Source: Spirochaetia bacterium (GTDB taxonomy: Bacteria > Spirochaetota > Spirochaetia > SZUA-6 > Bin103). Taken from it: a DNA stretch of 64,000 bases. The stretch covers positions 4,448,001 to 4,512,000 of the forward strand of contig OZ241863.1 in NCBI GenBank assembly GCA_965203055.1. The letters are read 5' to 3'. The first letter of the stretch is position 1, and each line of letters starts with the position of its first letter. Shown here one piece after another: positions 8,720-11,311 of this stretch. The translations under genes were made by a program, and so were the position numbers. The notes under the pieces were generated by a model, which was not told the DNA's origin, did not search any database, and worked only from the letters and a program-made list of their open reading frames with translations.

Positions 8720-11311
8720 TTACCCGGAGGGGCCGCCCGAGTACGCCGCTCTCTCCGCAGAGCCAAGCGCTGAGAATACCGCGATAACAATACTCGTGGT
8801 TATCCGTGAGCCGCCATACCTGCTCAGTACGTCGCTGACTCCTGCCGCCTCCATCACGGCGCGAACCGGATCGCTGGCGACTATCCCGGTACCAGGAGAG
8901 GCGGGCTCCAGCAGCACTGTGGTATCGCTGTATGAGCCCTTCATGGCGTGAGAGATTGTGTTTCCACGGCGGGGCACGGGTATCATCCTGCGTCGTGCGC
9001 GCTCGATACTCTTGCGGACAGCGTCGTTAGTGTCGTCCGACCTTCCGAATCCGTAACCGACGCGTCCCCCGCGATCGCCAACTACGACCAACGTGAATAT
9101 CACATACCGCGGACTGCCACTCGCGGTCTCCGTGGTGCGCCTCCAATCCACCAGCTTCGCAAGCCATCTGTCATCTTCGATGTTGCCCGAGGAAAGGATG
9201 TTGCCGCCGCGAAGCGCTGGGGGCGCCAGCAGTGAGCGTGCCTCGCGTCGTCTTGCAACGACAGGAGTCGCCACCGAACCGGATCTAATCCGCACCAAGT
9301 CAATCGCGTCCTGCGGATGACTTCGTGGACGTAGTCGAATAACGTTGTGCCTTCCGGGTTCGGCCAACGACGCGAAGGGCCTGCGCCATAGTCCAAGCTT
9401 ATCGAAGGGGTTCGGGATGATGTGACCCTTGAAGTCGATATCGGTCGGCTGTTCGGGACAGCGTACGATGATATGCGAAGCAGATTTATCTTGAGGGACG
9501 TCCAGTTCCGTACCAAGCAGCAAGGGATATTCCTTCCCCGTACTAGTGCGGACGAATATGGAGATTCCTGGAGGCGGGAATGTGAACGAGACAACTCTCC
9601 GGTCAACTGAGAAGGCAAGTATAGCGCGCAGATATCGCGCATCCTTTTGCAAGCTAAGCCGTCCGTCAGCCGTCCTTGTCAAGTGCTTAAGATGTGTCTT
9701 TGCAAGGTTTTCCGGAATCGATTCCGCATCGAACACAGCTTGGTCACGCAAGCCTCTGAGACTTGGCCAGTACCAGAATCCGTACCGATTCAGCGCCCGA
9801 TTCTGACTCTTGACGTGTAACGAAATCCTTACCTTACCGAACGGTCCGCGTGTGGGGAGGTTCAGTGGTGCAACAAGGTCTCCGCTGGGCCGTATGTGTA
9901 CGGGAATACGTGATATGAAGTGCATGCCGTATTCCAATTTGATCTCGAGGTTGTCGCTCAGGCCACTCACGTCTCCCCTCAGAACAACGGTACGGGGTTC
10001 TGCCAGAAGCAATCCGTCGGCGTGGCGTGCGACTCTGCAGCCGTCGACTTCCAGGTGAAGGCGGGGATCAACCTGAGCATTTAAGCAGGCGTCTCCTTGA
10101 GAAATGCACAAATCCTTCGAGCTCTCAGGATACAAGACGTACGCGTTCTGGCCAAGTTGATATGCGTCCTCTCCGTTGACCCGAAATAGCCGCATCGACA
10201 CCAGAGAGATCGAACCGGCGGGAATGCGCGGTACGCTGCGTGCTTGATGATTCAGCACTCCTTTGAGCCTGCCGGAGTCGCCATCGAACAGGAGAATGTC
10301 GGCTTGTGGATCTTTGAACAGCGGCAGGGACTGCCAGTTATTTCGCTCAGTGCTAGCCTGCCAGCGAACGCAACGCGGCCAGGGAGGTGACAAGACTGTG
10401 CCCTCTTGTGGATTCAAGGGTCTCGGCGGCTGGCTGGAATTGATGTCGACTTCAAGCGATTGCCCACGAGGCGCGGCTTCAATGCACAGCTCGCCGTCGC
10501 GGAACGTCAAGCAGGGTGGACGAGGCGCCGGACCATGTCCCCCGCTCAGTTCTTTGATTTCGTGGAGGACCCGGCGTTCGAAGTCGGTTGTGGGTTGGTC
10601 CCATTCTCGGAGTCGAACGTAGACGGTAGCGTGATAGCCGGTCGAATCCTCGCCAAGTATTTTGCGCAGCCTTGTCAAGTGTGTCGGAACGTGCTCCATC
10701 GCCTGCTCTTCCCATGACTTGACTTCAGCGGTGTCCTCGCAATCCGGCAGACCGGATTTTCGTTCGACACGCAGGAACGCGTCCACAAGCGGCCTGATCT
10801 GGCTGTGGGGAACACCAGCCTGAAACAGATAGTCGCCAATCAAGTCCTGCGTGCCGGGATACTTCGGCGGGAGTATGAGGCCATGTTCATTGCAGGCGCG
10901 TCGAAATCGATCATTGAAAGAGTCGCGGCGGTTCGTCGAGATCTCCATGCCGAGTCGGTGGGAGATCGGACCATAGCTCGCGTGGTCGGTATCCGGGCCG
11001 TATTGCTCCGCAAGAGTGGTTGCGACGGCCCAGACTGCGAGGAGGGGGTATTGTACGGTCACGTAATCAAGGAAGTTATCTGTTACTCCCCCGATTTCGG
11101 CTACTAGCGCGTGCTCGACGTCGCTGCGCATCGGCTCCGGTATGTCGTGGTGACCGATGAAGGGCGATCCATGTTCCCGTGCCAAGTGCCTTCGCAGTCT
11201 CTGTTCGGCTCCGGCGAGGGCCGCCATCCGCATCTCGTAGCTGGTTGGCATCGGTGGTATTGACTGTCCCGACCATGAGCCACTGGCGTCGTGGCCAAGT
11301 GACATTACCAT
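8720..11311 (-). CDS. Large helicase-partner protein (DruH-like by position, uncertain) with a C-terminal ribosomal protein uS5-like domain; start could be 11311 or 11233
   Basis: Long ORF ending 26 bp before the helicase start. The last ~150 aa align by eye with uS5 ([41 protein letters not shown]). Confidence 0.75.
   Translation of the reverse strand: [863 protein letters not shown]

Follow-up and report, generated by a model that had tools for sequence, protein, structure and literature searches.

The closest described counterparts of the locus reported here are the type III Druantia systems, which are now being worked out at the structural level and in which a two-gene operon encodes a large partner protein, DruH, directly upstream of the helicase DruE (DEAD, Helicase_C, and MZB domains). 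In published reports, DruH comprises a helical N-terminal domain, six immunoglobulin (Ig)-like domains, and a helical C-terminal domain, and acts as a 3'-5' DNA exonuclease with a putative active site in the N-terminal domain, which is in contact with the C-terminal domain (10.64898/2026.05.13.724313). DruH binds or threads single-stranded DNA (ssDNA), and its C-terminal domain forms part of an ssDNA/ATP pocket (10.64898/2026.05.12.722862; 10.64898/2026.05.13.724313), situated between Ig5 and the C-terminal domain, for which ssDNA and ATP compete (10.64898/2026.05.12.722862). It has also been described as a likely infection sensor under positive selection, with dimer-dependent nuclease activity (10.64898/2026.05.12.724681). 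In the Mycobacterium smegmatis pair MSMEG_1253/1254, which is triggered by a phage tail protein, DruH (1132 amino acids) is toxic on its own and is accompanied by a DruE of 1667 amino acids; the residues of this DruH predicted to contact DruE, R410 and E651, fall in its N-terminal 60%, and several essential residues, from E842 to D1108, are located in its tail (PMC13316683). Across the Druantia III papers, the role of the DruH C-terminal part is debated: it has been proposed to form an ssDNA/ATP pocket, to exert dimer-dependent control of the nuclease, or to close a ring around ssDNA. In subtype III-B, DruE is compact and lacks PLD domains (10.64898/2026.05.13.724758; 10.1101/2025.09.15.676423). 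Here, we analyzed a stretch of 64,000 nucleotides from a Spirochaetia bacterium (GenBank assembly GCA_965203055.1, contig OZ241863.1, positions 4,448,001 to 4,512,000; hereafter, the window), where the gene upstream of druE encodes a DruH-like partner from which the helical C-terminal domain is absent, and which ends instead in a complete copy of the ribosomal protein uS5 (RpsE).

The two genes and the parts of the partner protein are arranged as follows, with residues numbered either as in the window's protein, P0001, or as in its AlphaFold model.

8720..11251, minus strand: partner-protein gene with the C-terminal uS5 module, 843 amino acids from M45.
10544..11251, minus strand: N-terminal all-helical domain, model residues 5-236 (AlphaFold, predicted local distance difference test score [pLDDT] mostly >90).
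9284..10513, minus strand: beta-rich array of Ig-like domains, model residues 247-656 (all-beta by DSSP).
9182..9274, minus strand: disordered, basic, fast-evolving linker, P0001 residues 704-734 (pLDDT, identity, and indels).
8738..9181, minus strand: complete uS5 module, P0001 residues 735-882 (Pfam, NCBIfam, PDB search, AlphaFold, and Foldseek).
8972..9157, minus strand: S5 N-terminal domain, resembling a double-stranded RNA-binding domain (Pfam PF00333).
9098-9142, minus strand: counterpart of the canonical 16S-contacting hairpin, not conserved (columns of 120 free-standing S5 proteins).
8753..8938, minus strand: S5 C-terminal domain (Pfam PF03719).
8694..8719, minus strand: intergenic spacer of 26 nucleotides, with the ribosome-binding site GGGAGG at 8699-8704, 5 nucleotides ahead of the DruE ATG.
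3792..8693, minus strand: druE, a YprA/MrfA-type helicase of 1633 amino acids (Pfam DEAD, Helicase_C, and MZB/DUF1998; PADLOC).

Sequence and structure searches agreed on the identity of the C-terminal module. Both S5 domains were matched by their Pfam profiles, Ribosomal_S5 at residues 743-804 (profile positions 4-65 of 65, E = 7.3e-14) and Ribosomal_S5_C at residues 816-877 (profile positions 1-62 of 71, E = 1.3e-16), as anticipated by an earlier note on this DNA that had placed a uS5 domain at 8720-9180. The NCBIfam model rpsE_bact (TIGR01021) aligned with residues 739-876 over profile positions 3-140 of 156 (E = 5.8e-36), and its score of 123.7 bits is lower than the curated equivalog cut-off of 164.05. 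A sequence search of the PDB returned 168 distinct chains at E<=0.01, the best 60 of which were all S5; the best alignment, with 8fmw_E (1.4e-29), was gapless over 134 residues and displayed the substitutions named in the earlier note, in which the KGGR hairpin is replaced by SGSP and AGG by ASD. The AlphaFold model of the 843-residue protein, computed from a 126-row alignment in which the tails of relatives lacking the fusion were misaligned onto the S5 columns, reached a mean pLDDT of 90.3 and a predicted template modeling score (pTM) of 0.79, with the S5 module at model residues 691-838. When this model was compared with the PDB by Foldseek, the best 50 matches were all uS5 chains (target-normalized template modeling [TM] scores of 0.56-0.93), and the best superposition, on 5u4j_e, gave a root-mean-square deviation of 1.4 Å over 134 columns with a TM score of up to 0.93. 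On the basis of these matches, the two S5 domains are predicted to retain their ribosomal mutual arrangement, and the retention of the fold core claimed in the earlier note is thereby upheld. The module thus resembles RpsE in carrying both domains colinearly and without gaps, and in its fold, glycine-rich motifs, and hydrophobic core. The structure 8fmw is a hibernating ribosome of the Lyme disease pathogen, and those of the closest free-standing S5 proteins (P0026-P0145, P0346, and P0347) that bear names come from metagenome-assembled genomes (MAGs) of Spirochaetaceae or Spirochaetales; taken together, these matches may hint at the lineage that donated the module.

The fusion itself is natural and real, and the original observation of it is confirmed. 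Among 23 proteins retrieved at E<=0.001 in the homologue search, 12 clusters (51 member sequences, 45-93% identity) match both S5 Pfam profiles at the corresponding position, and in their alignment the reading frame is kept across several indels in the linker. Pfam, rpsE_bact, the PDB alignments, and Foldseek all support a complete, colinear, two-domain uS5 joined in frame to a large unrelated protein, although the description of roughly 700 unrelated residues followed by a short linker has to be corrected to ~690 unrelated residues followed by a disordered linker of ~31 residues (pLDDT <50 over model residues 660-690; net charge +4). The longest open reading frame (8720..11383, minus strand) starts with GTG and encodes 887 amino acids. 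However, the alignment of 13 fused homologues backs a start at M45 (11251), and the database record P0309, which corresponds to residues 53-887, starts at M53 (11227); the gene product is therefore ~835-843 amino acids long, and the true start is likely to be one of these two methionines rather than the GTG at 11383. One fused homologue, P0011, has an extra insertion of ~12 residues between its two S5 domains, which is missing from its close relative P0010.

To place the body of the protein in its family, a profile built from the N-terminal part and the relatives lacking the fusion was run against 1.84 billion representative proteins, returning 480 representatives at E<=1e-3 and 233 at E<=1e-30. 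Most family members are ~1,050-1,150 amino acids long. Among the best 150 of the 480 representatives, 89 have at least 1000 amino acids, and S5, detected with a profile of our own, was found in four (P0009, P0013, P0183, and P0270). A Pfam scan of 45 non-fused relatives left 44 without any match, and the remaining one, P0271, showed a weak, sub-threshold match to Resolvase. A genome scan identified four further loci (L001-L004), none of them fused, in Bryobacterales, Longimicrobiales, and two Opitutales MAGs; at each of them, DruE (1e-141 to 1e-181) is encoded immediately after a non-fused relative of 1085-1108 amino acids. The same order occurs on a Ralstonia plasmid (L006), so that non-fused partners measure 1085-1142 amino acids overall, and their position directly upstream of DruE at all five loci identifies the family as a regular DruE partner.

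The homology between fused and non-fused proteins stops ~650 residues into the body. Beyond this point, the non-fused proteins continue with a tail of median length 432 residues (65 of 66 rows, one tail of less than 300 residues being left out). The possibility that this tail is itself a hidden S5 was rejected (hhalign probability 0.2%). By these alignments, uS5 has taken the place of a ~430-residue C-terminal module in a widespread family of DruE partners, which amounts to a domain swap. In the tree of the body (FastTree; 78 of 80 rows, the fragments P0008 and P0183 being dropped), the 12 fused proteins occupy one side of a branch with a support of 98. In the S5 tree, made from 71 rows comprising 11 of the 14 fused domains and every second of the 120 nearest free-standing S5 proteins, the 11 fused domains likewise fall on one side of a branch (Shimodaira-Hasegawa-like approximate likelihood ratio test [SH-aLRT] 90). 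The fused proteins thus form one clade, and a single swap event is compatible with these trees, short of proof since the S5 tree came with long-branch warnings and a narrow outgroup. Among longer proteins, no other S5 fusion architecture was found in a search that constitutes weak evidence. Apart from the fused family, the only proteins of more than 266 residues with a similar S5 domain were P0333 and P0334, which represent L18-S5 and S5-L30-L15 read-through fusions; unlike the fused partner, these join genes of the ribosomal operon and have neither a defence context nor an unrelated large N-terminal body.

Several features align the pair with Druantia III. As the earlier note had assumed, the fused protein partners a defence helicase, whose gene lies downstream: DruE is encoded next, after 26 nucleotides, and matches the PADLOC models DruE1 (6e-167) and DruE3 (1.6e-163). 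The window's DruE is colinear with that of locus L003 and 53% identical to it, the corresponding value for the partner being 38%, and a partner that diverges faster than DruE is again a point of likeness to Druantia III. With 1633 amino acids, and with no PLD or other nuclease family detected by Pfam, the window's DruE resembles the compact DruE of subtype III-B as described in published reports (10.64898/2026.05.13.724758; 10.1101/2025.09.15.676423). Its size is close to that of the M. smegmatis DruE (1667 amino acids; PMC13316683), the E. coli III-A DruE having 2114, and the likeness to the MSMEG_1253/1254 system likewise follows the published description of that system. The DruE proteins of L002, L004, and L006 (Opitutales and Ralstonia) are 1973-1979 amino acids long and include a C-terminal stretch that matches the Mrr-like nuclease end of the ZorD models; this stretch is not present in the window's DruE. 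The partner is predicted to begin with a helical domain and to continue with Ig-like domains, an order that would resemble the one described for DruH (10.64898/2026.05.13.724313). The invariant and near-invariant columns of the family place its most conserved charged residues in the helical domain, which, by analogy with DruH, may be the nuclease or active domain (10.64898/2026.05.13.724313). When the model was compared with viral models by Foldseek, only generic tandem Ig/FN3/BACON arrays were matched, at TM <=0.16, and the comparison with the PDB yielded no informative match for the N-terminal body because uS5 chains filled all 50 listed places.

Conservation within the module differs from that of a ribosomal protein. 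In uS5, the K-x-x-K-G-G-R-R-F hairpin is invariant and basic and contacts 16S rRNA. Across 120 free-standing S5 proteins, 90 alignment columns reach a conservation of 90% or more, which is somewhat inflated because the 120 proteins are a narrow sample; these columns were examined in 8 diverse fused members. In 26 of them, mostly glycine, proline, and hydrophobic-core positions, 7 or more of the 8 fused members retain the conserved residue, and the motif G-D/N-x-x-G-x-V/L-G-Y is kept in all 15 S5-bearing members. The hairpin columns, by contrast, are 99-100% conserved in the free-standing proteins and matched in 0-5 of the 8 fused members, one of which has a deletion at this site, and lysine columns such as K781, K819, K826, and K867 are not kept. 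Lysines have largely been swapped for arginines in the fused modules, and the module core carries a net charge of +6 to +11 with an isoelectric point of 10-11.4, roughly half the canonical median charge of +14.5. Overall, the identity between the module and free-standing S5 proteins is 44-54% (best 120 of 488 matches). Its earlier description as diverged is thus a relative one, the module being less diverged than the note implied.

The rates of change point in the same direction. In the 71-row tree, which consists almost entirely of free-standing proteins, the median end branch over all rows is 0.059 substitutions per site; the branches of fused S5 domains measure 0.5-3 substitutions per site and exceed those of free-standing S5 by a factor of 10-50. 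Over the 21 pairs formed by 7 divergent fused proteins, the median identity is 60% for the helical domain, 56% for the beta array, 38% and 45% for the two S5 domains, and 15% for the linker. By this measure, no other folded part of the protein evolves as fast as the module, which is nevertheless far more conserved than the linker; it is clearly constrained, but less than the body or in a different manner, and its constraint is not that of a ribosomal protein. The fused alleles P0007, P0008, and P0009 are only 59-66% identical to that of the window, though the threonine synthases of their genomes are at least 90% identical, which reveals a locus that is highly polymorphic among close relatives. 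Furthermore, the module sits behind ~690 residues of another protein, and its gene neighbours are druE and suf genes, not ribosomal protein genes. As judged from sequence, it is very unlikely that the module serves as a working ribosomal protein, and the earlier statement that the domain is no longer ribosomal is supported by the rpsE score, the lost hairpin and lysines, and the long branches.

We tentatively favour, at a little under an even chance, the explanation that uS5 has been exapted as a tethered, non-ribosomal module for nucleic-acid binding or recognition in a Druantia III-like, possibly III-B-like, system. According to this proposal, the genes at 3792-11251 (minus strand) would constitute a two-gene anti-phage operon in which a compact DruE is paired with a DruH-like partner. 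Within a single small clade of the partner family, uS5 has displaced the usual ~430-residue C-terminal module, probably in one event; released from ribosomal service and hanging on a flexible linker of ~31 residues, this copy would take over the substrate-holding or regulatory task of the lost tail. It may do so by presenting phage nucleic acid, such as single-strand/duplex junctions or RNA-containing intermediates, to the N-terminal helical domain and DruE. This proposal is favoured because the C-terminal part of canonical DruH helps to hold ssDNA and ATP, and because the uS5 module keeps its fold, its positive charge, and a flexible basic linker.

Several observations weigh against it. The loss of the hairpin and lysines could also weaken nucleic-acid binding in general, and the swap was not like-for-like, since the replaced tail is acidic in the non-fused relatives (median net charge -10). 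The lower identity of the S5 domains (38-45%) relative to the body (56-60%) fits a decoy or sensor at least as well, as faster evolution is the pattern expected of a surface that faces phage proteins. In addition, none of the PADLOC DruH models matched the partner, or any family member checked, at E<=10, though 11 DruH3 models of PADLOC matched E. coli DruH as a control; the comparison of the family with E. coli DruH yielded an hhalign probability of 0.4%, and the family profile retrieved no DruH from the PDB, despite the presence there of 9tud_A. Pfam does not bear on this question, since the copy used had no match to E. coli DruH either. An Atlas query returned YjiT-domain clusters at 0.81 only, which we rate as a lead. 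As no sequence link to DruH was found, the partner is termed DruH-like by its position and predicted architecture, and both nucleic-acid binding by the module and phage defence by the operon are to be regarded as putative. The same applies to the two roles offered in the earlier note, namely a decoy or sensor for phage factors directed at the 30S subunit and an RNA-binding activator of the helicase.

Among the alternatives, the one that withstands the evidence best is that of an integrated decoy or bait, in which the uS5 mimic would catch a phage factor that binds or modifies uS5 or the 30S subunit and would thereby switch on the DruH-like/DruE pair. To our knowledge, no phage factor that targets uS5 has been described, which counts against a bait of this kind, and so does the hairpin, the most recognizable surface element of uS5, which is not kept and varies between alleles, although a good mimic should preserve the features that its attacker recognizes. 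The fold, however, is sufficiently intact for a superposition on ribosomal uS5, the module evolves faster than any other folded part of the protein, and its alleles differ strongly among genomes with threonine synthases of at least 90% identity, all of which would suit a bait. The proposal that canonical DruH is an infection sensor under positive selection (10.64898/2026.05.12.724681) and the triggering of the M. smegmatis system by a phage protein (PMC13316683) agree with it as well. On balance, we consider a decoy unlikely, with a small but appreciable share of the probability.

It is quite improbable, by comparison with what a ribosomal contact would demand, that the module has retained binding to 16S rRNA or to the place of uS5 in immature 30S particles, bringing the DruH-like protein to the side of the ribosome where mRNA enters or letting it interfere with translation during infection. 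Such docking would be in keeping with the predicted ribosomal arrangement of the two S5 domains (TM up to 0.93; 1.4 Å over 134 columns), with the basic character that the module has kept, and with the tolerance of natural uS5 for N-terminal extensions, as in the mycobacterial chains of 213-220 amino acids among the PDB matches. Against it stand the loss of hairpin columns that are otherwise nearly invariant, including the deletion in one member, the lysine columns that are not kept, the roughly halved net charge, the rpsE score under the cut-off, and the DNA-centered biochemistry known for Druantia III (10.64898/2026.05.12.722862; 10.64898/2026.05.13.724313). Taking these ideas together, we also consider a bolder claim, namely that uS5 serves as a built-in bait or docking element through which the DNA-directed Druantia machinery is connected to the translation apparatus. 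It would either trap a phage factor directed against the 30S subunit or place the sensor close to the mRNA entry site, on ribosomes or pre-30S particles. This, too, appears unlikely, though worth keeping in view.

The module could also be a mere structural filler: a folded cap, a piece for dimerization or for contact with DruE, or a relic in slow decay that itself binds nothing. This reading is likewise of low probability. The module does evolve faster than the body, and many canonical surface residues have been lost, as a filler would allow; yet none of the 12 full-length clusters has lost the module or its reading frame, at overall identities as low as 45% and in spite of linker indels, its identity of 38-45% compares with 15% for the linker, and its positive charge has been maintained. 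Finally, an artefact, be it a chimeric assembly or a missed stop or frameshift joining an rpsE-like gene to its neighbour, is excluded in practice because 12 independent clusters share the fusion, with an identical join on separate contigs (two of them of 4.56 Mb and 5.44 Mb), and because the frame runs through the fusion point without a stop, no second S5 copy was found in the 64-kb window, and no ribosomal genes adjoin.

The fusion is rare (4 of the 150 best representatives) and, as far as literature searches reach, undescribed. The earlier note had known of no such system, and our searches, which covered publications and not preprint supplements, found no published description either. In the available text of the cited Druantia papers, exclusive of their supplementary variant tables, there is no mention of "ribosomal" or "uS5". 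Literature searches pairing S5 with Druantia, anti-phage, or integrated decoy returned nothing relevant, the single match for Ribosomal_S5 being a BREX paper. Within the same reach, no other complete ribosomal protein has been described as part of an anti-phage protein, which would make the window's protein the first example.

Plant NLR immune receptors carry integrated decoy domains, and the uS5 fusion is similar to these in that a copy of a potentially targeted host protein is built into a putative immune protein. This likeness is an analogy only. If the module is a bait for a phage factor, the integrated-decoy idea would extend from plant immune receptors to bacteria, and if either bait or docking holds true, the fused partner would represent a bacterial immune protein into which a ribosomal-protein decoy is built, the first of its kind. 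The natural replacement of a whole tail by a small, well-understood module offers a clean handle on what the tail must do, and it bears on whether nucleic-acid binding is enough for this task and whether the partner senses proteins or nucleic acids.

In its genomic setting, the partner/druE pair has a guanine-cytosine (GC) content of 0.58-0.63, compared with ~0.70 for the genome, and, lying on the minus strand, interrupts a suf operon of the plus strand, with sufB/sufC (1102-3752) on one side and sufD/sufS (11569-14264) on the other. The sufD cluster apparently has members on the contigs of fused homologues, so that the insertion site may be conserved. Between the divergently oriented partner gene and sufD, there is an imperfect direct repeat of 34 nucleotides (11348-11381 and 11533-11566, 74% identity); scans for repeats, promoters, and terminators around the island found nothing above background. 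An SNF2-type helicase at 4-957 (minus strand), represented by its N-terminal 318 amino acids and cut by the edge of the window, matches the PADLOC model HmaA (1e-129) and may belong to a third defence system nearby. Farther along the window, a low-GC patch (0.54-0.61) at 22015-24810 holds a type II restriction-modification pair.

22015-23061, plus strand: type II endonuclease (PADLOC REase_II, 2e-129).
23044-24810, minus strand: Eco57I/N6-type methylase (PADLOC MTase_II, 2e-184).

It is followed by a single frame of 7039 amino acids (25849-46965, plus strand) with He_PIG Ig, Calx-beta, and LapA-like matches and a strong GC and AT skew, along whose minus strand shadow open reading frames of ~690 nucleotides recur; this frame probably encodes a giant repetitive adhesin.

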